Below are positions 1,981 to 33,377 of a DNA stretch of 64,000 nt, one piece after another. Source of the DNA: an uncultured Nitrososphaerota archaeon (lineage in GTDB: Archaea > Thermoproteota > Nitrososphaeria > Nitrososphaerales > Nitrosopumilaceae). Within the stretch, counting starts at the first letter, position 1, and the number at the start of each line of letters is the position of its first letter. The translations under genes and the position numbers were made by a program. The notes under the pieces are model-generated. The model saw only the letters and a program-made list of their open reading frames with translations. It made no database searches and was not told where the DNA came from. The stretch is taken from the NCBI GenBank assembly GCA_963701075.1, contig OY969559.1, positions 960,001 through 1,024,000 on the forward strand. The letters run 5' to 3'.

Positions 1981-1984
1981 CAAT

Positions 1985-3007: not shown

Positions 3008-3073
3008 TGAATCTGCTCCAGTTGCTCAGAATAAAAGAATTTTGTATCGCGTTATGTTTATACAGTCAACAGA

Positions 3074-6281: not shown

Positions 6282-7547
6282 CTAATTTCGCCTGTTATTT
6301 TTGTACCTGTATCTATCTAGTTTTATTAATTCTTGATAAGAGCCAAATCGGTTGACATCTTCCACTTTGTCAAGCATATCTTCTTCTTCGCCTGAATTGA
6401 ACCTCTTGATTATCTTATATCTTGTTGTTCTCTGGGCAGGGATCCTTCCTATCTCTCTTACAAGATGCCTTATTTCACGTGGTCTTATGATCTGACCGTG
6501 ACCTGCTCCTGCGGCAGTTGAGATGCTCTCATTGATGAGGGTTCCTCCAAAATCATTGGCGCCACATGTTAGCAATAGCTGTGACATGTTGGTGCCTTCT
6601 TTGACCCATGATGTCTGAATGTTATTGATGCAGTTGTTTAACATGATGCGTGAAATGGCATGCGTCAATATGACATCTCTTCCATCAGCTCCGCTCTTTA
6701 TTCCGTCATGCAGTTTTTCCTTAAACATGGGAGCTTCAGTATGAATGAAATTCAATGGAACAAATTCAGTAAAGCCACCAGTTTCCTTTTGTATGTCTCG
6801 AAGGATACCGATGTGCTTTGCTCTATCTTCCGGTGTTTCAAGGTGCCCAAACATCATGGTAGATGTAGATGGAATTCCCATCTTGTGAGCTGTCTTTATT
6901 ACCTCAATCCATTTTTTCACACTGATTCTTCCAGGTGAAATTTTATCGCGCAGTGATTGATCCAAGATCTCTGCAGCAGTACCAGGGAGTGAGTTTACTC
7001 CAGCATCCTTTAACCTTTGTAAATATTCCTGAATCGAAAGACTTGATCTAGTCGCACCATAGAGAACTTCTTCTGGTGAAAAACCATGTATGTGAATGTC
7101 TCTAATCTCTTTTTTTATTGACTTGCAGATATTCTCATAAGTACCTCCATCCATATCGGGGGGAAGCCCTGCTTGTACACATACCTCGGTTGCACCAAGT
7201 GCGCTTGCCTCCTTTGCTCTCTTTACTATTTCCTCTATTGGTAAAAAATATCCCTCCTCTTCACGAAAGTCTCTACTAAATGCACAAAAGCCGCACTGTT
7301 TGATACAGACATTGGTAAAGTTGATGTTTCTATTCACAACATAAGTGACTATCTCTCCTACACGTCTCTTGCGAAGCTCATCTGCTACCATGACCACAAG
7401 ATGAAAGTCTATTCCATTTGCAGAAAATAATCTTGTAGCTTCCGGTATAGTTACTTCTTTTTCTCCTAGGGCTCTGTCTAACGTCTCTGCAATAAAAGGA
7501 TCAGCATGCCTGAGAAGAGAATCAAAAAGGGCCGTCTGTATTTTCAT
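6282..7547 (-). CDS. cofH: FO synthase subunit CofH
   Basis: NINFTNVCIKQCGFCAF, LPGTAAEILD, NIQTSWVK, GANDFGGTL; adjacent to cofG. Confidence 0.93.
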   Translation of the reverse strand: MKIQTALFDSLLRHADPFIAETLDRALGEKEVTIPEATRLFSANGIDFHLVVMVADELRKRRVGEIVTYVVNRNINFTNVCIKQCGFCAFSRDFREEEGYFLPIEEIVKRAKEASALGATEVCVQAGLPPDMDGGTYENICKSIKKEIRDIHIHGFSPEEVLYGATRSSLSIQEYLQRLKDAGVNSLPGTAAEILDQSLRDKISPGRISVKKWIEVIKTAHKMGIPSTSTMMFGHLETPEDRAKHIGILRDIQKETGGFTEFVPLNFIHTEAPMFKEKLHDGIKSGADGRDVILTHAISRIMLNNCINNIQTSWVKEGTNMSQLLLTCGANDFGGTLINESISTAAGAGHGQIIRPREIRHLVREIGRIPAQRTTRYKIIKRFNSGEEEDMLDKVEDVNRFGSYQELIKLDRYRYKNNRRN

Positions 7548-8713
7548 TTCAGGTACTCCTTATTTACAAGACAACTAGAGTCAGCAATCTCTAGCATCTT
7601 AGATCTCAAACTAGAATTCACCATGGGGAAGAACTCGGGATAGACTGGAAATCGTGCCCTAAGCTCAAATCCTGCATTTTCACAATTTTTCTGCACAGTA
7701 TCAATTGAAGGCCAAGAAAACTCAGGATTTACATAATCTGGAGTTATTGGAGATATTCCTCCCCAGTCATTTATGCCAGTTTGAAGAAAATCTTGGTAAG
7801 AACTAGGAGATAGATTTGGCGGAATTTGTATATTCATTTCTGGCATAATTAATCTAGTCAAAGCAACAATAGTCTTGAAATATCTTTCTTCTGGTCCAGG
7901 TACGTTTTGCATCATAGTATTGGGCTTTGGTTGAAAGTTTTGCAATATTATTTCTTGAATGTGACCATATTTTTGATGAATCGATTTTATGGCAAAGATG
8001 GAGTCAATTATCTCAAAGGGGCTCTCACCAATTCCTATCAAGAGTCCAGTTGTCATTGGTATGGACAGCTCACCGGCGTTCTCTAATACGTGAATTCTGG
8101 CTCTTGGCTTCTTGCTTGGTGCAAATTCGTGAGGCATGTCTTTTTTTCCAAGTCTCTCGCTTGAGTTTTCAAGCATCACTCCAAGGCTTGGATTAGTCTT
8201 TCTGAGTTGGCTCATCTCAGATTTTGTTAGATTTCCAGCATTGGTGTGTGGAAACAGTCCTGCATTCAACGCTATTTCTGATGCATGAATGAGATATTCT
8301 GCAGTACTTGCAAAGCCATTTTCTTTAAGCCACATTCTGGCTTCGTCATATTTCTGCTCTGGTCTTTCGCCTGTGACAAATAATGCCTCTGTACACTTGT
8401 GATTACTTCCTACGGACGCAAGATTTGAGATATCTTGCTTTGACATCATGGATGTTTTGGATTCCCGTGGTTCTGACTTGTAAGTACAATAAGAACAAGT
8501 ATCTCGGCAGAGATTGATCAAATTAAAAAAAACTTTTCTTGAGTACGTGACAATTCTTCCCTTGTTTTTATCTCTGAGAATCTGTGATGCTTTATAAATC
8601 TCAAATGTACTGCTTTCTGATTCCTGATAAATCTGATATGCGTCAGTATTTGTAATTTCTTTCCCGTCGAATACTTTGTTTAATAATTCAGAATTTAGAA
8701 CTATCTCGCTCAA
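7544..8713 (-). CDS. cofG: FO synthase subunit CofG
   Basis: CRDTCSYC, PHTNAG, QIPPNL, DWGGISP, DYVNPE. Confidence 0.93.
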   Translation of the reverse strand: MSEIVLNSELLNKVFDGKEITNTDAYQIYQESESSTFEIYKASQILRDKNKGRIVTYSRKVFFNLINLCRDTCSYCTYKSEPRESKTSMMSKQDISNLASVGSNHKCTEALFVTGERPEQKYDEARMWLKENGFASTAEYLIHASEIALNAGLFPHTNAGNLTKSEMSQLRKTNPSLGVMLENSSERLGKKDMPHEFAPSKKPRARIHVLENAGELSIPMTTGLLIGIGESPFEIIDSIFAIKSIHQKYGHIQEIILQNFQPKPNTMMQNVPGPEERYFKTIVALTRLIMPEMNIQIPPNLSPSSYQDFLQTGINDWGGISPITPDYVNPEFSWPSIDTVQKNCENAGFELRARFPVYPEFFPMVNSSLRSKMLEIADSSCLVNKEYLK

Positions 8714-18652: not shown

Positions 18653-19535
18653 TTGTCACAGTAACCCCGTTTTCTTGAGGTATGAAGGTATGCTCTGCTT
18701 GAGCCACTCTTTGGTTATTTGCTTCTACTAAAACAGGATATGATCTGACAATTTTATTCTGGATCAATTTGTCTAAAAGTGTCCTAGCAGTTTTTTCATC
18801 CCATTCTGGCATGAACCATCTTAATGCAAATGGCAACATGTTGAATTTTTGCCAGATAAAATCAATGAACTTGTTTGCATCATCATCTTTTGCACGCTTT
18901 CTTGTGGCTAGTGAAAAAATATTTCTTGTCTTGCCCTCTCGAACAAACCCTAGACCATCTCGTGTTGTAACAAATGGTTCACATGCGTATGCTTCTGTTG
19001 ACTGGAAAGAAAATGATCCAATAGACCATATGTTTGGCACAGATTTTCCTGCATGTATGGTGAATCGTTCAAGAGAATGGCCACTGAGGTTTGCAATTGG
19101 TATGCCTCCCATTTGTTTTGCTGTATTTTCTATAATTTTTCCAACATCACTTGATTTTGTACCGACACGTATGATGGAGATTGCCTCTCTTAGGGCAGCT
19201 TCTGCAGCTTGGACAAGATAATCGTAATTTGGATCATAGCATACTGTTACTGCAGTATCTGCAATGTATCCGTTTATCTGCACACCCAAATCGATTTTAA
19301 GAAGATCAGTTTCTTTGACAACTATGCTGTCATTTGGTTCTGCAGTATAATGCGCTGCGATCTCATTTAAGCTGGCATTTACAGGAAAAGCACATTTGCC
19401 TCCTTTTCGCTCTATCTCCTTTTCAATTGATTCACAAACTTCTAACAGCGTTGAGCCAACATGATATTTTTTCCTAGCATTTTCTCTAACCTCAGCTGCG
19501 ATTTTACCTGCACTAATGTAGTCTTGAACCTGCAT
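18645..19535 (-). CDS. map: Methionine aminopeptidase type II
   Basis: AAHYT, DLGVQINGYIADTA, GHS, EPF, AQAEHT. Confidence 0.96.
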   Translation of the reverse strand: MQVQDYISAGKIAAEVRENARKKYHVGSTLLEVCESIEKEIERKGGKCAFPVNASLNEIAAHYTAEPNDSIVVKETDLLKIDLGVQINGYIADTAVTVCYDPNYDYLVQAAEAALREAISIIRVGTKSSDVGKIIENTAKQMGGIPIANLSGHSLERFTIHAGKSVPNIWSIGSFSFQSTEAYACEPFVTTRDGLGFVREGKTRNIFSLATRKRAKDDDANKFIDFIWQKFNMLPFALRWFMPEWDEKTARTLLDKLIQNKIVRSYPVLVEANNQRVAQAEHTFIPQENGVTVTTI

Positions 19536-19622
19536 TAGTTTAACATTGAATAGATTTGTTATTTAAAATCATCATCTCATATGGGAAGCTTAAATTGGGG
19601 ACTTTTTTGTGCATTCAACATC

Positions 19623-19696
19623 GGGATCGTGGTCTAGCTTGGTATGATGCGGGTTTTGGGTACCTGAGGTCGTCGGTTCAAATCCGGCCGATCCCA
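19623..19696 (+). tRNA. tRNA-Pro (TGG), intronless, CCA not encoded
   Basis: Acceptor GGGATCG/CGATCCC, anticodon arm CGGGT-TTTGGGT-ACCTG, T arm GTCGG-TTCAAAT-CCGGC. Confidence 0.95.
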
Positions 19697-19906
19697 TCTT
19701 TTGTATTTTATATTACTAAAATCATCACATGTCATTTCAATTAGTTATTATCTGACTTTCACACAATCTGATGAGTCAGGCGATGAAGAAGAGTTAGAGA
19801 CATGATAAAAAGATGAATGTGAATTCAGTGACTCGGAGCCTGGCGTATCTCATAGGTCACATTGAACAAAATTTACGCCTTAAATTGTGTTGGTGTATGA
19901 TATCAT

Positions 19907-21151
19907 ATGAGTGAATTCCAGAGAATAGCAAACAATGACATACATAATTCTGTTAGAGACGTTGAGCGATATAAAAATATCTTACAGAAATTCAAGAACG
20001 GTTCTGACTGTATAAAATTTTTGGATGCGTTACTTTTGTCAGGCAGAAGCTGGATTCGAATTGCAACTTATGCTTATTCATGTCAGAAGATTCTTCAGCT
20101 CAAAGACGATAAACCAATAATCTCATGGACTCGCGAGGATTGCGAAGAGATTGTAAAAAAGTTTGTAATTGCAAACATATCAAACGCTACAAAGGAGGGC
20201 CACTTGCGTACCCTCAAACGTTTGGTACACAGGTGCAAGACAAAGAAACTGATTCAAAAGGGTAGGGAAGACTATTGCGAAGAAGTTGCCTGGATTACGC
20301 CCGGATCTTTCTACGACAAATACGAAAAAATCCAGTCAAAAGACTTGATAAAAGACAATGAAATTCTTGCCATGATAAACGCTGTCAAGAAAATGGGAGG
20401 AAAATATGTAAAGAGAAACATTCTTGTCTTGTTTCTTCTACTTGATGGAAGCTTCAGGCCTGCAGAGCTTCTCAATATCACCATTGGTGGCATCGAATTT
20501 GGTACTGATTTTGTGAGGGTTCATACAACTGGCAAGACAGGCCCAAAAAGGCTCACCTTGGTAACAAGCTTCGTACCAATGAAAGAATGGATACAGGAGC
20601 ACCCCGATGCTGAAAATCCAGAAGCATATCTTCTATGGGAAGACAAGGAGGAAGGCAGGATGTCATACTGGCAGTTATGGCGTCTTGTAAAACGTTCGGC
20701 TCAAAAGGCTGGTATTAAGAAAAGAATCTGGCTCTACCTTTTCAGGCATACCAGTATTACAGAACATGTTAAGCGTCTTGGTCGTGTAGCTGCGGTTTAT
20801 GGAAATTGGAGTCCACGAAGTAAAATGTTGCAAAAGTACACGCACCTGGCAGATTCCGACCAGGAGGATGCTATCCTGAAGCTGCATGGCCTAAAAAAAG
20901 AGGACAACACTGATTCTATATTATTTGCAAAGATGTGTCCCCAATGCCACAAGGGAAACAGTGCAGATAAATCTCATTGCAGCAATTGTGGTACAATTCT
21001 TTCCAAGAAACTAGCCCAGATTCGCGAATCTAGAAATATGACTGATGTACTGAGGTTTGAAAGAAAATTCTCTTCAGAAATAAAGAGTCTACGGAAAACT
21101 ATAGAAGAACAACAAAAAATGTTTGAAGTCTTGCTAAAAAGTAAAAATTAA
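19907..21151 (+). CDS. Tyrosine integrase/recombinase with C-terminal Zn ribbon
   Basis: RPAEL (R), GKTG (K), YLFRH, GNW, KYTH (Y); CPQC..CSNCG. Confidence 0.92.
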   Translation: MSEFQRIANNDIHNSVRDVERYKNILQKFKNGSDCIKFLDALLLSGRSWIRIATYAYSCQKILQLKDDKPIISWTREDCEEIVKKFVIANISNATKEGHLRTLKRLVHRCKTKKLIQKGREDYCEEVAWITPGSFYDKYEKIQSKDLIKDNEILAMINAVKKMGGKYVKRNILVLFLLLDGSFRPAELLNITIGGIEFGTDFVRVHTTGKTGPKRLTLVTSFVPMKEWIQEHPDAENPEAYLLWEDKEEGRMSYWQLWRLVKRSAQKAGIKKRIWLYLFRHTSITEHVKRLGRVAAVYGNWSPRSKMLQKYTHLADSDQEDAILKLHGLKKEDNTDSILFAKMCPQCHKGNSADKSHCSNCGTILSKKLAQIRESRNMTDVLRFERKFSSEIKSLRKTIEEQQKMFEVLLKSKN

Positions 21152-21267
21152 TATTGTTTTCCTTTTAATTTTTTTTCAAGCTTTGTTACTTGCTCAAGCA
21201 TTTTTTCATTCTCTTCTTTGAGCCTGAGAATTAATTCTTTTGGTACATCTATTGTTTTTTCATTCAT
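21148..21267 (-). CDS. Small coiled-coil protein (39 aa, not in ORF track)
   Basis: MNEKTIDVPKELILRLKEENEKMLEQVTKLEKKLKGKQY; convergent with integrase, stops overlap. Confidence 0.4.
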   Translation of the reverse strand: MNEKTIDVPKELILRLKEENEKMLEQVTKLEKKLKGKQY

Positions 21268-21355
21268 AGTACATTCTACAGCAATTTTAGTTTTTAAAGT
21301 CAACACAAAGTTGATCAGAATATCCATCCAATAAATCTAATAAATGACCTTGTCT

Positions 21356-21393
21356 AGTACACCCCCGTGTACTTAGTACACCCACATGTACTT
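21356..21393. repeat. Tandem pair of 18-bp palindromes
   Basis: AGTACACCCCCGTGTACT-T-AGTACACCCACATGTACT-T. Confidence 0.9.
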
Positions 21394-21490
21394 GCATTCA
21401 TAAATGGTTGTAGACGCTCGAATGGTGCTTAATGCCAAACATTGCACAATCTTGCAACACGAGAGAAATTTCTACCTCCTGATGCAGGAC

Positions 21491-21527
21491 TCCTTGTAAA
21501 GTTTACAAGTTGTAAACTTTACAAGGA
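21491..21527. repeat. Perfect inverted repeat, 18-bp arms, built from two TTGTAAAnTTTACAA palindromes
   Basis: TCCTTGTAAAGTTTACAA-G-TTGTAAACTTTACAAGGA. Confidence 0.95.
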
Positions 21528-21547
21528 ATAGGCATATTGCTTATAAT

Positions 21548-21587
21548 GTAGACATTGTAGACAATATTTGTCGACATTGTCTACAAT
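21548..21587. repeat. Four-box GTMKAC palindromic site, left copy
   Basis: GTAGAC att GTAGAC aatattt GTCGAC att GTCTAC aat; box spacing 9/13/9; runs into ATG at 21586; TTATAA at 21541. Confidence 0.95.
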
Positions 21588-22764
21588 GAACAATCCATTC
21601 AACCCAGGCTCGGGAGTGCCTCCTCCTTATCTTGCTGGAAGGCAAGAGCATTTGGCAAGGTTTGAACAAATGTTAAAGAGCATTAATGACGGCCATGTTG
21701 AGAATCTGATAGTATATGGTTTACGAGGGACTGGAAAAACGGTCCTCATGGAAGAATTTAGTAAGTTGTGCATAAGTCACAGGTTCATTCCTATCAAGAG
21801 AGCACAGTTTAGTAAGAAATACTGTGACCCAGATGAGTTTACCAAGGCATTAAAATATGACATAAAGACTGCAATAGGTACATTTTCCAGGGTCAAGCGA
21901 ATAAAAGACAAGTTTACTTCAATTCTCTCTTATGTTAGACCAAAACATGTGGGAATCCCAGATGTTTTCTATTATGAACCGTCTTACAGTTCAGCTTCCG
22001 GCGTACCATTTGAGGATCATCTGAAGGAATATCTTACCAAGAATTGGAAAATCTTTGAAAACAGTAATTACAAAGGGGTTATCTTTCTCTTTGATGAATT
22101 TCATTCAATCTATGACGTACCATACAAAAAGTGGTTTGTTCTTTCTGATTTTATGGGGGTACTAAATGAAGTACAAAAGACTGGCTGTAGATATTTTGCA
22201 GTTTTTTCTGGCCTGCCAAACCTTCATCTCAATATTAAAGAAGCAAGATCGTATTCTGAACGCATGTACAAATCATTGGAAGTTGGAAATCTAAGTGAAG
22301 AAGAGGCAACATCTGCAATTACAAATCCGTTAGTTAAAAGTGAGTACAAGTTTGAAAAATCTCTTGTTGAAAAGATTGTAGTCGAAACTGGTCAGTATCC
22401 ATATTTTATTCAATTCTATTGTAAAGAGTTAATCAATATGAGTGATAAGAAGAAAATTTCTCTAAGTGAATACGAGAGAATCAGTCCTATGATTACAAAA
22501 CAACTCGATGATGACTTTTTTGATCCCAGACTGGAGATATTGAGTGATGATGAACAAAAAGTGATTGTTTCCATGGCACGTGCAACTGATACTGACATAC
22601 CGTTTGATTTTATCAAGAAAAAGACAAGAATGGAACGAACTACATTATCAAAATATATGAAAAGGCTCGAGGAGAAGGGTCTGGTTTATAACTACAAACG
22701 TGGAATTTACCGTTTCTCTGTCCCATTGCTAAAGCAGTATCTTGTACGAAAGTCGACAATGTAG
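21586..22764 (+). CDS. AAA/STAND-like ATPase with C-terminal winged HTH
   Basis: NPFNPG..PPYLAGR, Walker A GLRGTGKT, Walker B FLFDEFH, TGQYPYFIQ, C-terminal RLEEKGLV...GIYRF. Confidence 0.9.
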   Translation: MNNPFNPGSGVPPPYLAGRQEHLARFEQMLKSINDGHVENLIVYGLRGTGKTVLMEEFSKLCISHRFIPIKRAQFSKKYCDPDEFTKALKYDIKTAIGTFSRVKRIKDKFTSILSYVRPKHVGIPDVFYYEPSYSSASGVPFEDHLKEYLTKNWKIFENSNYKGVIFLFDEFHSIYDVPYKKWFVLSDFMGVLNEVQKTGCRYFAVFSGLPNLHLNIKEARSYSERMYKSLEVGNLSEEEATSAITNPLVKSEYKFEKSLVEKIVVETGQYPYFIQFYCKELINMSDKKKISLSEYERISPMITKQLDDDFFDPRLEILSDDEQKVIVSMARATDTDIPFDFIKKKTRMERTTLSKYMKRLEEKGLVYNYKRGIYRFSVPLLKQYLVRKSTM

Positions 22765-22791
22765 ACATTATTTGTCTACATCGTCTACAAT
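22752..22791. repeat. Four-box GTMKAC palindromic site, right copy
   Basis: GTCGAC aat GTAGAC attattt GTCTAC atc GTCTAC aat; 35/40 identical to 21548-21587; contains the ATPase stop codon. Confidence 0.95.
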
Positions 22792-22847
22792 TTGGCGCTT
22801 GTTATAGGAATTGGTACGGATAGTGCGCCAAACTATTTGATAAAGTA

Positions 22848-22877
22848 AAATCTGGAATCTGGACTTTATAACAAATG
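22848..22877 (+). repeat. 30-bp direct repeat, copy 1 (contains TTTATAA)
   Basis: AAATCTGGAATCTGGACTTTATAACAAATG, 28/30 identical to 23199-23228. Confidence 0.9.
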
Positions 22878-22929
22878 AGTTCCTTAAATGGCACATGATA
22901 TCTTGTAGATCATATATGCATTTTGTATC

Positions 22930-22965
22930 GTATGCAAAATTGCATACGTATGCAAAAATGCATAC
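22930..22965. repeat. Tandem pair of 18-bp palindromes
   Basis: GTATGCAAAATTGCATAC GTATGCAAAAATGCATAC, with a degenerate third copy at 22914-22929. Confidence 0.92.
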
Positions 22966-22983
22966 GGGATACTTGATTCAGCT

Positions 22984-23018
22984 ATTACGCCATTTAGCGT
23001 AACGCCTTTTGGCGTAAT
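22984..23018. repeat. Overlapping pair of palindromes
   Basis: ATTACGCCATTTAGCGTAACGCCTTTTGGCGTAAT. Confidence 0.85.
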
Positions 23019-23198
23019 GGATTCAAACTTGATACTTTCATGTCCATCATCCCTAGGGTCGTTATAGAACCTGGATTCTATCCCGGAATAGAGGCGGCTG
23101 GCAAAAACATCCTGCATTATAGGACCAAATTCTGATCCTATAACGCAAGATGAAGTCAACACAAGCTCGCTAATGCAAGTTTACTTACTTTATAAGGT

Positions 23199-23228
23199 AA
23201 ATCTGGAATCAGAACTTTATAACAAATG
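23199..23228 (+). repeat. 30-bp direct repeat, copy 2
   Basis: AAATCTGGAATCAGAACTTTATAACAAATG. Confidence 0.9.
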
Positions 23229-23737
23229 GAATTACTGATCGTCTGATTCCACGGATCAGGGAAGCTGCATCTTAAGATCAAAGTTTCAAGCGACTTTACA
23301 TTCGTAATGGGGACGAAAATCTAGTCATATCGACTCCTTTACTTGATGATGAGGGCGTCATTATAGCTAAAAAAATTTTTAGCTGAGTTGTTATACCATA
23401 TCTCAAACCGGGAAGTATATGGCCTGTAACGAACTAGTCATAAGTTGATGGTCTGCCTTCTGGAATGCTCTTTGGTAATAATATTATCACCATTTTTTAA
23501 AAGACATGCAACGATCTCCTATCTTATTGATAAAAAGATCACCTGGTATGATAAATAGTGCACCTAACAAAAAATATGGTTTGCCATCTATAACATACGG
23601 ATCAAAAGAGGCTCTGGAGTCTCAAGATGCTACTGATGATAGTGTTTCAGGGTTGATTCCGTCAAGCGTATACAGAGCAAAAATGCGAGAATACAACCAT
23701 TGGAACCTGAAGCTTAGAGTCAGGCTCACTCTCATGC

Positions 23738-24274
23738 TTGGTGCTTGACACACTTTATGATGCAATCAAGATGACACTACAGGAACTGCATCAGGCCACA
23801 AATGGTGACGTGAGGATGACTATTCACAGGCTCAGAAAAAAGGAGATGGTGACACAAAACGACGACAAAACATACTCACTGACAGAGCTTGGAAGATGGT
23901 TTACTATCTCAACCAGACTGAAACTCTCCTTTCTTGAGCTCTGCCTGCTCGCATGCGCTTGCTGTGTTCAGGCTAGGTATGCAAGGGATTCGAAGATCGG
24001 TTTTTACATGCGGCCAGCGTTTGATCGCATCTTTGGCAGGTTTTATACCAAAAAATACATCTCTGTCGTATTTTCTACACTGAAGAAGAAGGGTTATGCA
24101 GTAAAATTTTCCTACAAGACCATACGCGTGTACCCAAAGACATGCGAGGGTCTCATGTCGATGTATGGGGAGGACTTTAAGGGACTGGAGAGGTGGCTTG
24201 ACAGTGTAGAGGAAAACCAGCTGTACATTGCATGTGAGGTAACTGAAGGCTTGTTGAAGAATCATGCTGACTAG
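23738..24274 (+). CDS. Putative winged-helix protein; N-terminus possibly frameshifted
   Basis: RLRKKEMV...YSLTELGR and second LKKKGY motif; overlapping upstream ORF ends at 23748. Confidence 0.5.
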   Translation: MVLDTLYDAIKMTLQELHQATNGDVRMTIHRLRKKEMVTQNDDKTYSLTELGRWFTISTRLKLSFLELCLLACACCVQARYARDSKIGFYMRPAFDRIFGRFYTKKYISVVFSTLKKKGYAVKFSYKTIRVYPKTCEGLMSMYGEDFKGLERWLDSVEENQLYIACEVTEGLLKNHAD

Positions 24275-24824
24275 ATCGGAGAGAAGGCTTGTTCAGAATC
24301 CCAACGGGCTTCCATAAAGCTAGGTGTGGGTTAACAGATGCAGGATAAACAAGAAGATAAGAAGATTCGTATCAGACCTCAAGGTTATCAGTGAAAAAAA
24401 AAAACGATGAGCTTCACTTGAATCGTCATGTACTTGATGAGCTTTTAGGGGCAAAAAAGGCATTACAGAATTCTGTAAGGTCTAGTCAAAAAACCATATC
24501 TGATTCTGAAAATACCAGAAGTTCAGTTTTAGACAGACTAGAGAACTGGTAGTTCGTAACTCCTTAAAAAGAAAACCAATTTTGTGCCTGAGTAATACCA
24601 ACTCAAAAACAAAACAACACGAATCCGACATGCACATGCAAACTGGTAACATCACCACCAACCATACAGTCTAGAATTTTTTCACATTTCCAAAACACAA
24701 AAGCTCCAAAATTACAAACCAATTTACACCAAAACATTTCAAAATACTGTAATGTCTGTATGGCTCTTTTTTGGGCAATTCGTAAAACAAAACTCTCTCC
24801 TTAAATCCAACACCATACTAGCAT

Positions 24825-25004
24825 GTGTTGAAAATCGTACTGCAAAAGCAAAGGTCAAGGAACTACAACGGTGCCAACTACTACAAGTACCGTGTTACCA
24901 TACCCATACAAATTGTAGGGCAACTCAAACTAGAAGGAGGAGAAGAGCTTGAGATCTCTGTTGTGGAAGATGCAATCGTAATCAGGGAAACCCTTAACAT
25001 ATAA
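24825..25004 (+). CDS. AbrB/MazE/SpoVT family DNA-binding protein (59 aa, not in ORF track)
   Basis: Manual translation MLKIVLQKQRSRNYNGANYYKYRVTIPIQIVGQLKLEGGEELEISVVEDAIVIRETLNI; VTIP..I...L....G.EL signature. Confidence 0.8.
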   Translation: MLKIVLQKQRSRNYNGANYYKYRVTIPIQIVGQLKLEGGEELEISVVEDAIVIRETLNI

Positions 25005-25219
25005 AAAATCACATCAAAAATCTATCTAGTCCTCAGGTTCCTTGTTCCCCATATCTTTTATAACTTCTTTCTTTTTTTCTTTAATAATTTTTTTAGACTG
25101 TCTAACGACATTTTCTTTTTACAAACTTTATGATCTTTGTTATTTTTCCAGTGTTACTATCATTCTTAGCTATCTTGTGACTATTCCAACTGAATGAAGT
25201 GTCTTTTCGACCTCGCTCA

Positions 25220-25612
25220 TTATCCTTTTCTTATTTCACTAAGATCTTTTTCCACTGTTGACAGACTACTTCCTATTTTTTGTGCAATTTCCTTTTGCTT
25301 GTAACCTTCCAAGAATAGTTTCCTCACCTGATTTCTCCTGCCACTCACTTTGTCCTGCACCACCAGTTCCTTTTTCTCAGTCAGCAACTTGACTATGCCG
25401 CTGTTGAACTGTATCTGGATCTCCTTTGTTTTTTTGATCATTGTAACTAGGCCTAGGAATATCTCTTGCATCTTTTTTGTGAGATCACTGAGTGGAGGAT
25501 CTGTCTTGTTTGATTCCTCATATTTTTTTAGAATCTCGTTGTAAAGTTCGATGTCTTCTAGATGATGTCTGTTGTTTTGCTCGATTAGTTCGATGGCTTT
25601 CTTGACCGTCAT
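25220..25612 (-). CDS. Protein with C-terminal LuxR/sigma70-r4-like HTH
   Basis: RRNQVRKLFLEGYKQKEIAQKIGSSLSTVEKDL. Confidence 0.7.
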   Translation of the reverse strand: MTVKKAIELIEQNNRHHLEDIELYNEILKKYEESNKTDPPLSDLTKKMQEIFLGLVTMIKKTKEIQIQFNSGIVKLLTEKKELVVQDKVSGRRNQVRKLFLEGYKQKEIAQKIGSSLSTVEKDLSEIRKG

Positions 25613-25970
25613 ACGCCATATTCAAAACAGTTCTACACAAATTGCTGGTAACTCTATAATCTTCCTTTTCTTGCATACTACATTACATCAATCCTCTCAA
25701 ACTTTTTTTATTGATAGAATTAAAGTCATGTCTTAATCATAGGCTTTTAACAGAATATCATTCTAGGATAATTTTTTTTATGCTACAATGATACTGTCAA
25801 AAGAGGAACTCCAGGCAATAGTTCCAAAGTTACGAAGAAACTAGAAATGTTTAGGAAGATGTTTGGAGCTGTTTTGAGCCTTTTATGACCCACAACCAAG
25901 GAAATCTGTTCAAACATTGATTGATTGTTATGGACAGCCTGGCATAAAAATCTGCATGTCCTCGTAAACA

Positions 25971-27533
25971 CTATTTTGATTTAAGACGTAACAGAATTAG
26001 ATTAGTTTCCATTCTGCCATATTTTGTAGGATATTTGTCCTTCAGTTCTGTGATTAAAAGAGTAGCAGCAACGTTTGCTCCACCTTCACCATAATAATTA
26101 TCAAGATTTTCAATAATTTGTTTATCAAACACCTTACTTAGATCCTGAAAAAAGATCTCTTTAGATACGTTCATTTTTTGCGCCTGCATGTTTCGTTGAA
26201 GTAGATTAACTAATCTAAACAGAACACTAATTCCTCTGTTATGACCAAAATATGTTCCTGCCTTAAATGAATAATCTGGCATGTATTGCTGCATGTAAGT
26301 AAAAATCTCCTTCAACTTTTTGTTAGTAGTAGAAACTGTTTCTTGTACCAGATTGTTGCTAATCATTGCAGAAACAAGCGTAGTTAGAGTAATTTTGTCA
26401 CCTTTTTGTTCATCTGCCATTCCAAAATAGATCCTATTTTTGAAAAATGAATGATTTAGCTCGTCTGCGACTCCGACTGATATTTTTTCTTTAAACTCTC
26501 TTGTTCCTTCCTTCCAATCTAAATCAGCCTTTAGCAGTAGTATTAGGTTACCGTCTATTCTTTGTTGTTTTGAATTAATATCAACAAATGTCTTGATCTC
26601 CTTTTTTCTATCATAATCTTGTAATGCAATAACTGGCATAGAGTACATCTTCTGAATTTCCGATGATACTACTGAAAAACCCAAAAGCCTGTGCTGTCCG
26701 TCAATTATTCTACAAGTATTGTAACTTAATGGAAATTGTATTTTTACAACTTTTGGGCAATCCTCTGGTGGGAGTATTTTATTCGTCATATCAGGCACAT
26801 TTATCAAAATAGAATTTGGAAAGGAAAGTCCTTCTCCTTTTTTGATATTATTAGATATGTTGATCATTCTGTGTTCTTTCAAGGTCCTCTGATAACCCAC
26901 GTCTTTGGTTCTTCGTCTTGAAACATAACATGTGTGTAGTAAATTAAAGACTCTTTCTACAAAACAAAATACTGGTATGTCACCAATATAATATTGAATT
27001 GCATCAATCTGTTTTGATGTTTTCTCATCTTCAAATTCCAACCAATCAAGCAAGTCATTTTTAGCCCAAAGTCCAATTTTCTTGTAACAGTTTAAAAAAT
27101 ATTCATAATCATCTAGATATGCAACTTTGTTTAGTTTACCACTTTGTGTCATACGCTGAACTTCATGAGATGGATTTTCTGGAGTTTTAGTAGATAGATC
27201 AAAATATACTCTAATTACTTTTCTTGGTCTTAATTGGTATAGTTTGTTGACAATTGCCAAATTGTCACGATCTTCCCATTTAATAAAAAACGCATTTTTC
27301 TTATTACTAGAGTGTTTATCCTTACTCACCTCTACAAGAAACAAATAATCTTTGAAGGTGAAAATTAGATCAATTTCACCTATCCTTTGAGTTGATGAAT
27401 TTGTAATTATGGAATTTGCATCTACAAAAGTAAATCCTAATTTGAAAAGTAGATCTGCTACTTCACGCTCATTTTTATTTTCAATTTTAGCGATCTTTTG
27501 CTCTGTTTCTAAAATTTGGTCTTTTTCCATCAT
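25971..27533 (-). CDS. DGQHR (DndB-like) domain protein with N-terminal PD-(D/E)xK-like domain
   Basis: GYQR, FPNSILIN, IIDGQHRL, FVDINSKQ; N-terminal GEIDLIF...FLVEVSK. Confidence 0.85.
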   Translation of the reverse strand: MMEKDQILETEQKIAKIENKNEREVADLLFKLGFTFVDANSIITNSSTQRIGEIDLIFTFKDYLFLVEVSKDKHSSNKKNAFFIKWEDRDNLAIVNKLYQLRPRKVIRVYFDLSTKTPENPSHEVQRMTQSGKLNKVAYLDDYEYFLNCYKKIGLWAKNDLLDWLEFEDEKTSKQIDAIQYYIGDIPVFCFVERVFNLLHTCYVSRRRTKDVGYQRTLKEHRMINISNNIKKGEGLSFPNSILINVPDMTNKILPPEDCPKVVKIQFPLSYNTCRIIDGQHRLLGFSVVSSEIQKMYSMPVIALQDYDRKKEIKTFVDINSKQQRIDGNLILLLKADLDWKEGTREFKEKISVGVADELNHSFFKNRIYFGMADEQKGDKITLTTLVSAMISNNLVQETVSTTNKKLKEIFTYMQQYMPDYSFKAGTYFGHNRGISVLFRLVNLLQRNMQAQKMNVSKEIFFQDLSKVFDKQIIENLDNYYGEGGANVAATLLITELKDKYPTKYGRMETNLILLRLKSK

Positions 27534-27615
27534 TTTTGTTATAATTAATCAGTTATTACAAATTGTGTTTTTTAAAACCGAATAATGTCTATAAAGACCA
27601 AATCCTTCTCGTTTT

Positions 27616-29106
27616 ATGTTGTCTGATAAAGTAACTTTCGAATTTCTCAAGAATCATCTCTGGAAAGCAGCTGATATTCTAAGAGGTTCTTTAGACGCAG
27701 GTGAATATCGTCAGCCAGTCATGACTCTGCTTTTTCTAAAAAGACTAAATGACACATTTGAAGAAAATGCAGAAAAATTGCTCAAAGCAGGAAAGAGTCA
27801 GAAAGAAGCATATGAAAATCCTGCAAGACATAATTTTTTTATTCCAAAACAAGCACGCTGGAAAATATTATCAGAAACAACTGAAAAGGTTGGCGAAACA
27901 ATAGATCATGTCTGCAAATTAATAGAAAGAGAAAATCCAGATCTAGATGGTGTGATGACAAATACAAAGTATAGCGATAGAAGAAAATATCCTGACGATA
28001 AATTACGACAATTAATTTCTCACTTTAATTATCCATCATTAAAAAATTCTGATTTAGAAAAAGAAGACATTTTTGGTGATGCATATGAATATCTTTTAGC
28101 AGAATTTGCTGATGAAACAAAGAAGAAAGGTGGTGAGTTCTTTACTCCAAGAGAAATTGTTCGTCTTTTAGTTAGTTTAGTAGAGCCAAAAGAAGGTATG
28201 AAGATCTGTGATCCTACTTGTGGTTCTGGTGGAATGTTGATTGAATCAAGAAAATATGTGGAGCGTTCTGGTGGCAATCCACGAAATTTGATTTTAGAAG
28301 GGCAGGAAAGCAACTATGGAAATTTAGCCATGTGCAAGATGAACATGGTACTGCATGATATTATTGATTTTAAGATAGAATATGGAGATGTGTTATCAAA
28401 TCCAAAACTAGTAGAAGGTGGAAGGCTCAAAACCTACGACCGAGTTCTTGCTAATTTTCCTTTTAGTATGAATTGGGATAGTAAAATCGCTGCAAAAGAC
28501 TCATACAATAGATTCCGATTTGGTGTGCCGCCTGCAAAAGATAAGGCTGATTTTGCCTTTATTCAACACATGTTTTCTTGCTTAAATGGAAAAGGACAGG
28601 CTGCCATAATTTGTTCTCAGGGAGTATTGTTTAGGGGTGGTGAAGAGGTAAAGATTCGTGAGGGAATGATAAAAGAAGATGTAATAGAAGGAATTGTTGC
28701 ACTACCTTCCAATCTGTTTTATGGTACCGGAATACCTGCGTGTGTTTTGATATTAGATAGAAATAAACCTGCAAACCGTAAAAATAAAATAATTTTCATT
28801 CATGGCGCAAAAGACTATCAAGAGGGCAAAACTCGTAATACATTACGAGATTCTGATATAAAGAAAATTGTATCTGCTTTTAAGAATTACAAAGACATTG
28901 ACGGATATTGCCACATTGCGAATCTTGAAGAACTGCAAGAAAATGAGTTTAATCTTAATGTGCCAAGATATGTTGACATTTCAGAACATGAAGAAGAGAT
29001 TGATATTCAAAAAACAATTGATGAATTAAAAAAACTAGAGAAGGAAAAACAAGAACTTGAAGTTAGAGTAATTTCTAATCTAAAAGAATTGGGTTTTAAG
29101 GTTTAG
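27616..29106 (+). CDS. hsdM: Type I R-M methyltransferase subunit
   Basis: LWKAADILRG, GEFFTP, DPTCGSGG, motif IV variant NFPF, FNLNVPRYV. Confidence 0.95.
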   Translation: MLSDKVTFEFLKNHLWKAADILRGSLDAGEYRQPVMTLLFLKRLNDTFEENAEKLLKAGKSQKEAYENPARHNFFIPKQARWKILSETTEKVGETIDHVCKLIERENPDLDGVMTNTKYSDRRKYPDDKLRQLISHFNYPSLKNSDLEKEDIFGDAYEYLLAEFADETKKKGGEFFTPREIVRLLVSLVEPKEGMKICDPTCGSGGMLIESRKYVERSGGNPRNLILEGQESNYGNLAMCKMNMVLHDIIDFKIEYGDVLSNPKLVEGGRLKTYDRVLANFPFSMNWDSKIAAKDSYNRFRFGVPPAKDKADFAFIQHMFSCLNGKGQAAIICSQGVLFRGGEEVKIREGMIKEDVIEGIVALPSNLFYGTGIPACVLILDRNKPANRKNKIIFIHGAKDYQEGKTRNTLRDSDIKKIVSAFKNYKDIDGYCHIANLEELQENEFNLNVPRYVDISEHEEEIDIQKTIDELKKLEKEKQELEVRVISNLKELGFKV

Positions 29107-29109
29107 AAA

Positions 29110-30402
29110 ATGCAAATTGAAAAACAAAGACAAGGTTACAAACTAATTCAGATTCAATCTAGAAGATATGAAGAGATTCCAAATGATTGGAATGTTGTTA
29201 CATTAAAAAACTTGATAACTGACATAAAATCTGGTTTTGCATCTGGTGCGCGTGATGAAAATGGAGTAATTCAACTAAGAATGAATAACATTACTGATTA
29301 TGGAACACTAGATTTTAGTAAAATTCTGAAAGTTCCAATACCTGAGGATATTGATCAGTATGATCTGAAAAAAGACGATGTGCTTTTCAATAATACTAAC
29401 AGTCTTGATCTAATAGGAAAAACCACGATTGTTGATAACCTCATAGATCATACCTTCTCAAATCACATAACAAGAATAAGGACAGACAAGACAAAACTTG
29501 TTCCTTATTTCTTGATGTTGCTATTCTTAAAATACAAAGAACAAGCAATATTCCGTTCCATATGTAATACTCATGTGGGTCAATCTGGCATAAGCAAGAA
29601 TGAATTACTTAGGCTCAAAATCATCTGCCCACCATTAATAGAACAACAAAAAATTGCTTCAATTCTTTCATATGTTGATTATCTAATCAATCAAACACAA
29701 AAAATCGTTGAACAAACTCAGAGACTCAAGAAAGGAATATTGGAAAAGTTATTAACAAAAGGAATTGGACACACAAGATTCAATAAAACAAAACTTGGTG
29801 AAATTCCAGAAGAATGGAAAATTGAAAAACTTGAAAACATTTGTAAAATAACAGATACTCCGCATTATACATCGCCTTTGTTTAAAGACGGAATACCAGT
29901 TATTACTACCGCCGATTGTGATGAAAGTGGTAGAATAGATTATACACATGTAAATTTTACAACTAGAGAAGAATATCAAAAAAGACGGGAAACAATAAAT
30001 CCAGAAAAAGATGATGTGTTGTTTACTAGAGAAGCTCCATTAGGTATTGCAGTTGTAGTTGATAGAGACGAAATTGCGGTTGGTCAGAGAATTATTTTAT
30101 TAAAATTAGATAAAAAATTGATCAACAATATGTTCCTTATAACATTTCTAAATTCAGCAAGAGGTATTTATCAATCTAATTCTTTTGCCATAAAAACCAC
30201 AGTTGAACGAGTTAACATATCGGACATAAAGAAATTTGTAATTCCACTTCCTTCAATTTTAGAACAACAAAAAATTTCCAATATTTTATCAAATGTTGAT
30301 TTACAAATTCAAAAAGAACAAGAATACAAATCCAATCTTGAAACTCTCAAAAAAGGATTAATGCAAAAACTTCTCACAGGACAAATCAGGGTAAAAGTTT
30401 GA
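29110..30402 (+). CDS. hsdS: Type I R-M specificity subunit
   Basis: Two TRDs, repeated EIP..W and P...EQQKI..IL conserved regions, LKKGLMQKLLTG. Confidence 0.95.
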   Translation: MQIEKQRQGYKLIQIQSRRYEEIPNDWNVVTLKNLITDIKSGFASGARDENGVIQLRMNNITDYGTLDFSKILKVPIPEDIDQYDLKKDDVLFNNTNSLDLIGKTTIVDNLIDHTFSNHITRIRTDKTKLVPYFLMLLFLKYKEQAIFRSICNTHVGQSGISKNELLRLKIICPPLIEQQKIASILSYVDYLINQTQKIVEQTQRLKKGILEKLLTKGIGHTRFNKTKLGEIPEEWKIEKLENICKITDTPHYTSPLFKDGIPVITTADCDESGRIDYTHVNFTTREEYQKRRETINPEKDDVLFTREAPLGIAVVVDRDEIAVGQRIILLKLDKKLINNMFLITFLNSARGIYQSNSFAIKTTVERVNISDIKKFVIPLPSILEQQKISNILSNVDLQIQKEQEYKSNLETLKKGLMQKLLTGQIRVKV

Positions 30403-33377
30403 ACTTTGACGTAGCAGATAACGACGAAGGAAACAAGTCAGAGCGACCAGCCTTAGAGCAACTATACGCTATGGGATATGATTATCTAAGCCAAAATGAC
30501 CTAAACAAAACACGAAGAGATTACCGTGAAGTTTTGCTTTATGACAGGCTAGAAAAGGCAATCAGAAAACTCAATCCCGAATTTGATGATGACGGTGTAA
30601 GAGACGCACTCACACAAATCAGTGAATTATCATATCCGTATACACTAGATCCAATGGATACAAACGAAAAGATTAGAGCAAAACTTGTTGAACTATCAAG
30701 ATCAAATGGATTAGAACCAATAATTGTAACTCAAAACTTTGGAGAAGGTCCTGAAGAAAAAACTGTAAAACTATTCGATTTTGATAATCCTGAAAATAAT
30801 GACTTTCTAGCAACTAACCAATTTCAGCTAGATGGTTTTAAAAATCCAATATATCCAGACATTGTAATTTTTGTAAATGGTATACCATTAGTTATAATAG
30901 AATGTAAATCGCCTTCAATTCCAGATCCTATAGGAGAAGCAATAGAAAGAAAAAACTTTGCACATTATCAAACAAGGGGATTAGGATTTGAAAGATTGCT
31001 TTTCTATAATCACTTTCTTGTTGCAACATGTGGAACACTTGCAAGACACGGAACTCTTGGTTCTAGCATAAATCATTATGCAAGATGGTCAGAAGCATAT
31101 CCGCTAACTATAGAAGAGATTGAAAAAATATGTAAAAGAAAACCACGAGAGCAAGAAATTCTTATTGCAGGCATGTTATCAAAGTCACATCTTTTAGATC
31201 TACTCAAAAACTATGTCCTATACGAAGATGTAAACAACAAAAAAATAAAAAAGATTGCAAAACACCAACAGTATAGGGTAGTTACAAAAGCAGTCAACAG
31301 ATTACATCTTGAAGGAAACATTGCAGACAAAGGTGGAGTTATCTGGCACACTCAGGGATCAGGAAAATCACTTTCAATGCTCTGGTTTGCAACGCAATTA
31401 ATGTTCAAGTTCAAAAACCCAGCCATAATTATCGTTACAGACAGAAAGCAACTAGACAGGCAGATTCATGACACCTTTAGAGCATGTGGCTTTGCAGAAC
31501 CTGAAAAAGCCAAGAGTTCAAGACATTTGGCAGAACTATTCCAAAATGCAAAAGGTAAGACCATAATGACAACCATTCAAAAGTTTGCTACGGAAGGTGC
31601 TCAAATCCACACAGATGAGAAGGCAATCGTACTAGTAGATGAGGCACATCGAACTCAATACAAGTTTAATGCGGAAGATATGCGAGCAGCCATTCCAAAT
31701 GGCGTATTTTTTGCATTTTCAGGTACTCCAATTGACAAGAAAAACAAGAGCACTTACAGAGTCTTTGGTCCAATGCTTGACAAGTATTCCTTTGAAGAAT
31801 CTAAAGCAGATGGTGCAACTTTGTCAATATTATACGAAGGTCGTATGCCTCATCTTTTTGTTGAAGGAGAAGATACAATAGACAAAATATTTGAAAGAGT
31901 ATTTTCTGATCTTGACAAAGAAACTAAAGCCAAGCTAAAATCACAATATGTAACAAAAGGAAAAATCGCAGAAGCACCTGCAAGAATTAGAAAGATATGC
32001 ATTGACTTGGTTGATCATTTTACTAAACATATACAGCCAAACGGTTACAAGGCTATAGTTGTTGCATCATCAAGAGAAGCCGCAGTTCTTTACAAAAGAG
32101 AACTAGACAAACTAAATGCGCCGCAATCAAGAATCATAATGACTTCACAACTTGGTGAAAAAGGAAAAGATGGTAGTAACTGGGATGAATATTTCCTAAC
32201 TCCTGAACAGCGTGAAATAAAATCTGAAGAGTTCAAAAAACCTGAAGACTCAACAAAGATCCTAATTGTTGTTGACATGCTTCTTGTAGGTTATGATGTT
32301 CCAATTGCTCAAGTGTTGTATCTTGATCAGGGACTAAAAGAACACAATTTACTTCAGGCAATTGCTAGGGTAAACAGACCGTACGATGAAGCAAAAACCT
32401 ATGGCTTGATAATAGATTATTGCGGAGTAACAAATGAGTTACAAAAGGCACTTGCTATTTTTGAAGAAGAAGATATTCAGGGCGCACTAGAACCTCTAAA
32501 AGGAGAACTAGAAGAACTGAGGCTACGGCATTTAGACGTAATGTCTCATTTCAAGGATGTAGACAGAAACGATGACGATGCAATAATTACCAAGTTTGAA
32601 CCTGTAGATATTCGGGATAAATTTGAGTATGATTTTAAGATGTTCTCAAAGGCTCTAGACGTAGTACTTCCTGACAAAGAAGCAGATCCGTACATTGCAG
32701 ATTTTAAATTTGTTAGCAAAATCAGACAGATGATTCGTACGTATTATGAAGGTGTAAAGCCAAGCATTAGGGAATTTGGCAAAAAAGTGCAGCAACTAAT
32801 TGATGATCACATTAGATCTTTGAATATTTCTGAATTGATGGACCCACGTGAAATTACCTATGATAATTTTATTGCATATGCAAAGAAATTCAAAAGTGAC
32901 AGGGCAAGAACTGCCTTAATTAAAAACAAGGCAAGGCAGATAATTCGTGAACTAGCACCAAACAACCCTGCATATTATGAAAGATTGAGAGAAAGACTAG
33001 AAAAAATAATCACAGAAGAAGAAATTCGACGTAAAGAAAGTGCCGATTATTTTAACAAATATTTGGAAATTTATGAATCTGCACTAAATGAGAAAAAAGA
33101 AAGGGAAAAACTAGGATTTGAAACACCTTTTGAGTTTGCAGTATTTGGTGAATTACAAAACATAAAAAATAATGAAGAAAATTCAAAGCAAATCACCAAA
33201 ACAATATATCAAAAGATAAAAAAAGAGACAGAAATAATAGGCTGGAAAACAAAAACAAGCACAGAAAAGAATTTGCGTGTTATAATATTGGACATTTTAT
33301 CAGAAAATAAATTCAAGGAAGAAAAAATAGGTGAATTAAGTCGCAAAATAATAGATTTGGCAAAACATCACTTGTAA
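30399..33377 (+). CDS. hsdR: Type I R-M restriction subunit
   Basis: PDIVIFVNGIPLVIIECK nuclease, WHTQGSGKS, DEAHR, QAIARVNR. Confidence 0.96.
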   Translation: MNFDVADNDEGNKSERPALEQLYAMGYDYLSQNDLNKTRRDYREVLLYDRLEKAIRKLNPEFDDDGVRDALTQISELSYPYTLDPMDTNEKIRAKLVELSRSNGLEPIIVTQNFGEGPEEKTVKLFDFDNPENNDFLATNQFQLDGFKNPIYPDIVIFVNGIPLVIIECKSPSIPDPIGEAIERKNFAHYQTRGLGFERLLFYNHFLVATCGTLARHGTLGSSINHYARWSEAYPLTIEEIEKICKRKPREQEILIAGMLSKSHLLDLLKNYVLYEDVNNKKIKKIAKHQQYRVVTKAVNRLHLEGNIADKGGVIWHTQGSGKSLSMLWFATQLMFKFKNPAIIIVTDRKQLDRQIHDTFRACGFAEPEKAKSSRHLAELFQNAKGKTIMTTIQKFATEGAQIHTDEKAIVLVDEAHRTQYKFNAEDMRAAIPNGVFFAFSGTPIDKKNKSTYRVFGPMLDKYSFEESKADGATLSILYEGRMPHLFVEGEDTIDKIFERVFSDLDKETKAKLKSQYVTKGKIAEAPARIRKICIDLVDHFTKHIQPNGYKAIVVASSREAAVLYKRELDKLNAPQSRIIMTSQLGEKGKDGSNWDEYFLTPEQREIKSEEFKKPEDSTKILIVVDMLLVGYDVPIAQVLYLDQGLKEHNLLQAIARVNRPYDEAKTYGLIIDYCGVTNELQKALAIFEEEDIQGALEPLKGELEELRLRHLDVMSHFKDVDRNDDDAIITKFEPVDIRDKFEYDFKMFSKALDVVLPDKEADPYIADFKFVSKIRQMIRTYYEGVKPSIREFGKKVQQLIDDHIRSLNISELMDPREITYDNFIAYAKKFKSDRARTALIKNKARQIIRELAPNNPAYYERLRERLEKIITEEEIRRKESADYFNKYLEIYESALNEKKEREKLGFETPFEFAVFGELQNIKNNEENSKQITKTIYQKIKKETEIIGWKTKTSTEKNLRVIILDILSENKFKEEKIGELSRKIIDLAKHHL

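Follow-up and report, generated by a model that had tools for sequence, protein, structure and literature searches.

The stretch of DNA analysed here, hereafter the window, comprises 64 kb (positions 960001-1024000) of the single contig of 1,915,938 bp (38.6% G+C) that represents the genome of an uncultured archaeon of the Nitrosopumilaceae; positions are those of the window unless marked as genome, and L and G numbers designate fetched loci and genomes, respectively. The window carries an element integrated at a tRNA-Pro (TGG) gene (19623-19696, forward strand; ARAGORN, Rfam), which has a tyrosine integrase gene bearing a C-terminal zinc ribbon (19907-21151, forward strand; Pfam Phage_integrase, 47 bits), kept at 92-95% DNA identity in L112 and G302. 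Just inside this element lie an ATPase gene and a series of short palindromic sites with no gene attached, which are the subject of the present analysis.

The ATPase gene (21586-22764, forward strand; 398 amino acids (aa), AAA_16 domain plus winged helix) is the sole filled cassette of the window, being enclosed by two copies of a four-box GTAGACA site, of which the left one (21547-21587) ends at the ATG and the right one (22752-22790) encodes the last residues and the stop codon. Upstream are two solo tandem dyads, S1 (21355-21392; AGTACAC-N4-GTGTACT twice, 2 x 19 bp) and S2 (21491-21527; TTGTAAA-S-TTTACAA twice, 2 x 16 bp), the latter doubling as a perfect 18+18 inverted repeat. Downstream, the solo tandem dyad S3 (22929-22966; GTATGCA-N4-TGCATAC twice, 2 x 18 bp) is followed by the tandem dyad S4 (22985-23017; TTACGCC-N5-GCGTAA/CGCC-N4-GGCGTAA, 2 x 15 bp, core ACGCC-N4-GGCGT). 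All four had been listed in a preliminary description of the locus and are present within 1-2 nt of where it placed them; the same description credited most of them with the four-box design of the sites bounding the ATPase, yet the layouts differ, S1-S4 being dyad-dyad (-> <- -> <-) and GTAGACA consisting of two direct, then two inverted boxes (-> -> <- <-). It missed a further part of the same system, a 44-bp direct repeat (DR), 86% identical between its copies DR1 (22834-22877) and DR2 (23186-23228), both on the forward strand. The repeat ends with a TATA-like word and an ATG, and thus looks like a promoter; its two copies, which elsewhere bracket a 422-aa ATPase absent here, enclose in the window 310 bp with S3 and S4 in place of a gene. 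Single inverted repeats had been described as well and do exist, although the arms at 22791-22832 and 23064-23081 are lost in related loci and are, therefore, probably not part of the system; inverted repeats were found at 23108-23152, with TTATAGGA arms, and at 23204-23213/23242-23251. The word TTATAGGA occurs 4 times in the window, both strands counted, 3 of them within 340 bp between the cassette and DR2 (starts 22802, 23117 and 23136), two of which form the arms of the 23108-23152 repeat.

Palindrome density, suggested beforehand as a check against shuffled sequence, lies far above that of 500 dinucleotide shuffles in both intergenic stretches. Stretch 21328-21585 holds 5 perfect inverted repeats (arm of at least 7, loop of at most 6) where 0.16 would be expected, and 22765-23505 holds 4 where the expectation is 0.42, counts reached by 0 of the 500 shuffles in either case; the genome-wide background is 0.61 per kb. 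A strict scan for tandem dyads (two adjacent units at least 80% identical, each with an inverted repeat) returned five matches in the 1,915,938-bp genome, namely S1, S2, S3, a copy of S4 at genome 6962 and an ArsR operator-like site, and 1, 0 and 0 matches in three Markov-simulated genomes. At genome 721947-721978, the tandem palindrome ATTCCTATAAAGGAAT / ATTCCTGTAGAGGAAT stands directly before a gene for an ArsR-type helix-turn-helix protein and has the look of an ordinary operator for autoregulation, built likewise from two dyads. Repetitive extragenic palindromic (REP) and REPIN elements occur in tens to hundreds of copies per genome; they were rejected as candidates, each site motif being found at 1-2 places in the 1.9-Mb genome.

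Solo sites had been proposed to be scars of other cassettes, and for S1, S2 and S3 this is supported in that each brackets an ATPase gene elsewhere, whereas S4 was never found to do so. For S1, the orthologous locus is contig C78 of G302 (L101), whose positions 5084-2689 align with window 19001-21393 at 94.7% identity up to S1, where a 381-aa gene of family PF01637 (1549-2694) has one S1 before its ATG (1507-1547) and another over its stop codon (2689-2730). S1 brackets the 381-aa type likewise in the metagenome loci L115 and L122, and is empty (single copy) at the orthologous place in the window and in L112 (91.7%), so that the filled and empty alleles sought at orthologous positions are both seen. 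The window S1 resembles unit 1 of the integrase-side copy and unit 2 of the far copy of the G302 pair; such a chimera is the product expected of a crossover between two bracket copies, a match that is suggestive only.

The exact S2 tandem is found in the window, G077, G302, G268 and L112, in no case with a gene between two copies, as well as in public records of Nitrosotalea sp. or Nitrosopumilaceae metagenome-assembled genomes; G077 and G092 (L017) are unpublished genomes, on which no main conclusion rests. A 392-aa PF01637 gene of the metagenome locus L123 (2780-3958) does have an S2 tandem on each side, at 2742-2772 and 3953-3983. Ten loci were recovered from metagenomes with the S3 tandem as query, and in three of them, L116, L120 and L117, it brackets a 393-aa PF01637 gene (in L116, tandems at ~1249-1284 and ~2501-2536, gene at 1311-2492), L116 and L120 looking like one sequence on opposite strands; the remaining loci have solo S3, arrayed with S1, S4, S2 and DR. 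L114 is a solo-only array in the order S2-S1-S3-S4-DR within ~530 bp, while L121 has three S1 units consecutively, and G077 has S4 without S3 and one DR. Copies of DR bracket the 422-aa P-loop ATPase in L112 and in L072 of G344 (scores of 37 and 36 on the bracket scale defined below). Searches with single S3 and S2 units, allowing 1 mismatch, matched 24/63 and 30/63 genomes, mostly in isolated matches, and reversed-pattern controls matched several genomes too; viral contigs searched with the S4 and S2 patterns gave 0 matches. Separately, three S3-like dyads (GTATGCACTTTTGCATAC x3) stand consecutively at 469-522 of L071 (G318:C128), near a D5-type primase-helicase gene (1670-3295, reverse strand).

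The GTAGACA site provides the second series of alleles at one orthologous position, filled in the window and solo in G094, G306, G344 and G302. The solos retain the end of the ATPase reading frame (PLLKQ..KSM*), and in G344 a mini-open reading frame (ORF) of 15 codons fuses the first and last codons of the ATPase gene: at the sequence level, they are deletion scars of the cassette that is intact in the window. A 94% identical orthologue of the window ATPase is encoded in G077. Moreover, a cassette 80% identical to that of the window (21541-22789) is found at genome 1228766-1230014, flanked by SIR2-like and ApeA/HEPN genes, and the homology between the two cassettes stops at the sites. No empty allele for this paralogous cassette was found in the other 62 genomes of the genus, since its flanks are not conserved in them. 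A 165-bp stretch beside its upstream site recurs elsewhere in the genome at 83% (genome 1450716-1450881 and L004 8066-8230) and in G121 at 77%.

Bracketing was scored as the best match between the upstream and downstream flanks of an ORF. Among the 666 ORFs of at least 300 aa in the genome (median 8.5, 99th percentile 23.7), the two GTAGACA ATPases rank 4th and 5th, with 28 and 27.5, the other high scorers being mostly tandem-paralogue- or insertion-sequence-end-like. Three paralogous ORFs of ~390 aa (VLSVKC..; genome 170226-171416, 243803-244960 and 1776829-1777986) have inverted matching flanks and are probably insertion-sequence copies. In the fetched loci, 20 of 31 distinct ATPase ORFs score 16 or more, and 1 of 62 non-ATPase ORFs scores 18 or more. 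None of 13 canonical PF01637 genes from other Thermoproteota reaches 16, hence the bracket is a feature of this lineage and not of the family.

S4 follows a different pattern. Its tandem occurs in 8/401 genomes of the family, all in this genus (7/62 of its other members), at 10 loci, with 0 matches for the reversed control; in 8 of these 10 genome loci it lies ~35 bp past the stop codon of a conserved 125-aa gene of no known family. It is a conserved member of solo arrays. S4 and S3 are separated by 19-21 bp in the window, in G344 C6 and at genome 6961-7032, within a second element at a tRNA-Ala gene. G094, G035 and G306 have S4 and S3 set apart by a cassette of 1349 bp composed of an 84-bp terminal inverted repeat (TIR), a 392-aa PF01637 gene and a second TIR, the inner part of the TIR holding the S2 half-site TGTAAAGTTTA. 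The cassettes of G094 (L069 8848-10196) and G035 (L070 6813-8161) are 98.4% identical and inverted relative to each other, with collinear flanks at 84-90%; in G306 a deletion took the outer part of the right TIR together with S3. The TIR cassette always abuts an S4 unit, and no target duplication is found at its junctions.

The tRNA-Ala element itself (genome 1-14000, at ~4800-8490) has an integrase-like ORF, the empty S4-S3 pair, the 125-aa gene and a frameshifted PF01637 ATPase gene (5104-6226, reverse strand) whose two ends each carry three ACTAGT boxes. At 4826 lies a partial GTAGACA box pair, and ~4900-5000 holds the remnant of a GTAAACA cassette, consisting of a site, ~45 nt of gene start and a short inverted piece.

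With the 381-, 392- and 422-aa proteins as tblastn queries (the 393-aa S3-type was not used), no cognate ATPase for S1, S2 or DR was found in the genome, the only match being the frameshifted gene at genome 5104-6226 (32-36% identity to the 381-aa type); the three sites are, therefore, orphans here. Within 21100-23600, the same search for remnants of the 381-, 392- and 422-aa genes yielded weak matches to the resident ATPase only. The sites are nonetheless constrained: across 13 S3, 8 S4, 9 S1 and 3 S2 variants, half-sites are nearly invariant and spacers variable, and between the window and L112, S1 is identical at 35/37 positions and S2 at ~97% over 38-39 nt, against 76% for the DNA between them.

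The ATPases are predicted to have an Orc1/Cdc6-like fold. An AlphaFold2 model of the window protein, built from an 11-sequence alignment of published genomes only (predicted local distance difference test score, pLDDT, 82.7; predicted template modelling score, pTM, 0.80), matched in Foldseek the Cdc6/Orc1 structures 1fnn, 2qby, 1w5t and 2v1u and the PF01637 structures 2qen and 2fna, with template modelling (TM) scores of 0.54-0.61; a sequence search of the PDB with the window protein found nothing significant. The 381-, 393- and 392-aa types belong to PF01637 (cut-off 33.2 bits), scoring 64.8, 51.5, and 38.6 and 44.7, respectively, while the window protein scores 19.9 bits and falls below that cut-off, though it passes that of AAA_16 (40.2 against 32.6).

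Five protein types pair with five site types, namely 381 with S1, 392 with S2, 393 with S3, 422 with DR and 398 with GTAGACA. Homologues of the window protein occur in 18/201 genomes of the family, often in multiple or broken copies, and their boxes vary with them. Homologues at 40-41%, from this and a sister genus, have GTAAACA four-box brackets (L016, L019 and L119, plus L017 from the unpublished G092). In other, G+C-richer genera, the homologues are followed by perfect tandem arrays with GTCGACA, GTTGACA, GTTGTCA and GTCGGCA boxes. The two GTAGACA proteins have the same recognition helix; in 8 homologues with other boxes it differs, and a ninth homologue has no box. From this co-variation of protein and site I infer that the ATPases recognise their own bracket sites. 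The tandem arrays beside the homologues comprise 40 bp x 5.1 (L014 1290-1494), 112 bp x 5.1 and 100 bp x 3.4, as well as 72 bp x 2.2-2.5, at L012 356-1124 and 2712-3281, L026 2673-3012 and L010 2693-2871; array copies are 92-100% identical, with 2-6 boxes in each unit. L012 has an unrelated perfect array of 48 bp x 16 as well.

These data point to a common plan for the cassettes of Nitrosotalea-type elements, in which a single P-loop ATPase-winged-helix gene has the same 33-57-bp site at both ends, the upstream site abutting the start codon or lying no more than ~30 bp from it and the downstream site overlapping or closely trailing the stop codon. The bracket architecture, the pairing of one protein type with one site type, and filled and empty alleles at one locus are all documented in the sequences compared. 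S1, S2, S3 and DR1/DR2 are probably the solo bracket sites of ATPase cassettes lost from the element, so that the solo sites would be a record of how an integrated mobile element acquired and shed small gene cassettes. Mechanistically, the winged helix of each ATPase would bind its own dyads in dimeric form, a tandem site taking up two dimers, and the upstream copy, lying over the core promoter, would serve as the operator for autoregulation. Recombination of one bracket copy with the other, or internal deletion, would remove the gene and leave a solo site, and the solo arrays common to elements would offer homology for regaining cassettes in either orientation.

Several observations weigh against this explanation. 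Several loci were fetched through the sites themselves, which inflates the figure of 20/31 bracketed ATPase ORFs; free of that bias are L016 and L019, which were retrieved by homology, and the S2 bracket of L123. S4 brackets no gene in any of 10 genome and 5 metagenome loci. The GTAGACA solos keep gene tails, and hence are internal deletions and not clean pop-outs. Empty S4-S3 alleles keep TATGTGA beside S4 and have ~14 bp that are missing in filled alleles, so the insertion was not clean either. No recombinase is common to the loci, the two integrases being unrelated by BLASTP, and the binding of the dyads by the winged helix is itself putative. Lastly, that the sites are intact without their cognate ATPases hints at an ATPase-independent function or at a very recent loss; the conservation of the orphan sites gives some weight to the readings of the sites as landing pads, as origins or decoys, or as targets of other regulators.

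Active landing pads similar to att sites, into which a recombinase or the ATPase would insert, from which it would excise and within which it would invert cassettes, the solos being empty targets, are an unlikely but arguable reading. The inverted TIR cassette, more conserved than its flanks and always placed against an S4 unit, fits it, and so do the ending of cassette homology at the sites, the solo-only array of L114 and the intactness of the solo sites. On the other hand, no recombinase is conserved across loci, the island of the paralogous cassette has no integrase homologue among the ORFs tested, target-site duplications are absent and the solos carry gene tails. In the core sites of tyrosine recombinases the crossover regions are 6-8 bp long, and the 4-nt spacers seen here are shorter. 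Contigs of four DNA runs compared with the stretch break at the sites and show no junctions, although rare circles are not visible in contigs; the loose contig ends at sites show only other alleles from co-occurring strains. A bolder proposal, for which the probability is lower still, is that the site-gene-site unit represents a novel type of mobile element that lacks its own recombinase, the ATPase recognising its bracket dyads and homing to solo sites in other elements. If so, the ATPase would pair sites and promote its own insertion, inversion and excision via host recombination, and the orphan arrays in rival elements would be landing pads or decoys titrating the ATPase.

Known mobile elements offer partial parallels. 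Recombination between the two long terminal repeats (LTRs) of a retroelement leaves a solo LTR; in the same manner, a unit flanked by direct repeats could collapse here to one copy, solos then outnumbering full units and recording past insertions. Unlike LTRs, however, the repeats are dyads of 33-57 bp of a protein-binding type and not kilobase-long, no reverse transcription is involved, and many solos are internal deletions with gene tails. In integrons, which have reportedly been found in archaea too, every cassette is terminated by an attC of its own, which makes the two flanking sites different, the ORFs lack promoters and a single IntI-type integrase serves the array. The resemblance lies in an integrase beside an array of short imperfect palindromes and strain-variable single-gene cassettes, but here the same site stands at both cassette ends, the genes have promoter-like sites of their own, all cassettes encode one protein class and the neighbouring integrases are unrelated between loci; identical sites on both sides and the unrelated integrases of two site-bearing loci speak against an integron cassette array. 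Insertion sequences and miniature inverted-repeat transposable elements have TIRs and a target-site duplication, together with a transposase or, in its place, numerous non-autonomous copies. They were likewise rejected, for one cassette type does have 84-bp TIRs but encodes the ATPase only, makes no duplication and is present in 1-2 copies per genome.

According to Wu et al. (2012; PMC3528665), haloarchaeal origins adjacent to orc/cdc6 combine an initiator gene with its cognate origin recognition boxes (ORBs), and an initiator specifically linked to its ORBs can be translocated along with integrases. By analogy, the sites would be ORB-like origin boxes, the ATPases initiators, and the orphans dead origins or incompatibility decoys that titrate the initiator of a rival. 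This is improbable, in spite of real similarities: in both systems an AAA+ winged-helix protein of Orc1/Cdc6 fold (predicted here) adjoins repeated inverted boxes, box sequence is family-specific and the units are patchy and often beside integrases, and the perfect tandem box arrays after homologues in other genera (40 bp x 5.1, 112 bp x 5.1), with a spacing of 9-10 bp, would also suit an origin. In contrast with the haloarchaeal origins as described there, however, no AT-rich unwinding element lies between the inverted boxes, whose spacers are 1-5 bp, the sites stand at both gene ends, over start and stop codons, and not on one side, and solo sites survive without a gene, grouped in arrays. 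The proteins score far below the cut-off of the orc1/cdc6 model TIGR02928 (22.2 bits against 181.3), several cassettes in one small element would imply several origins, and the PF01637-type members match candidate defence families, not initiators. An Orc1/Cdc6 initiator with its ORB origin is disfavoured by the family score and the missing unwinding element, the linkage between protein and box being present, as far as can be told from sequence.

The sites might alternatively be operators or insulators of other regulators, such as the winged helix-turn-helix (wHTH)-like ORFs at 23506-24274 or the 125-aa protein, their adjacency to ATPases being secondary. This would account for S4, which has no ATPase partner and so often follows the 125-aa gene, and for the conservation of solos without cognate ATPases; a 46% homologue of the 125-aa protein is encoded nearby in the unpublished G077, and an ArsR-type gene of the genome is preceded by the same tandem-dyad design. 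Such a reading nevertheless has a low probability, because each of S1, S2, S3 and DR stands on both sides of one specific ATPase type, and neither the window nor the S4-carrying metagenome arrays contain the 125-aa gene. RNA or single-stranded DNA hairpins (terminators, small RNAs or REP-like elements) are very improbable: all four sites can fold, S2 as a perfect 18-bp stem, S4 is just past a stop codon in most loci and shows one compensatory double change in L037 (TTACGTC...GACGTAA), but stems are invariant and not covarying over 8-13 variants, the two S2 units of G077 share the same centre base, which breaks the long hairpin and keeps the half-sites, copy number is unlike that of REP, upstream copies sit at promoters, and an Rfam search of 19000-26000 (E of at most 1) found the tRNA-Pro only, with no known RNA family at the sites.

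The PF01637-type proteins match the candidate defence families PDC-S27/PDC-S01 of PADLOC, with E-values of 1.4e-12 (381-aa), 2.5e-9 (392-aa) and 7.6e-6 (393-aa) in a library without cut-offs, and the cassettes sit among type I restriction-modification, DndB-like, SIR2 and ApeA/HEPN genes. These families differ in being candidates without a known mechanism, they do not match the window protein or the 422-aa type, and flanking sites are not mentioned for them. PF01637 itself, with the structures 2qen (PABY2304) and 2fna (SSO1545), takes in the 381-, 392- and 393-aa proteins but neither the window protein nor any bracketed gene among the canonical ones examined, and no literature link between this family and cognate flanking sites was found.

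Other features of the element complete the picture. A 59-aa ORF without a family match (21148-21327, reverse strand) is conserved beside S1. The region beyond DR2 holds small ORFs of wHTH-like type, together with a DndB-like gene and type I restriction-modification genes. Among them, overlapping ORFs of 80 and 178 aa (23506-24274, forward strand) correspond to one 206-aa ORF beside the site array of L123, which suggests a frameshift or an internal start in the window, the 178-aa ORF beginning with MTLQELHQ. In the defence-type cluster of the same island (25971-33377), hsdM, hsdS and hsdR come after the gene for a 520-aa protein that shows weak UPF0102-like and DndB-like regions. A direct repeat of the tRNA-Pro 3' end was not found in the window, so that the far end of the element is undefined.

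No description of ATPase genes bracketed by cognate dyads, or of solo-site arrays, was found in the literature searched, supplements lying outside the scope of the search, and the accessible part of an account of integrated elements of Thaumarchaeota (PMC6563490) describes no such cassettes. Of the archaeal families without a known function, the wHTH ATPases of PF01637/AAA_16 belong to the most expanded; they were matched in 60/121 genomes of the phylum, with as many as 21 matches in one genome. The genes of this lineage each have a candidate DNA target on either side, so that the DNA specificity of the family can be tested directly. Filled, solo and inverted alleles form a natural series for cassette exchange among archaeal mobile elements and defence islands, and solo-site arrays could mark past cassette content in metagenomes.

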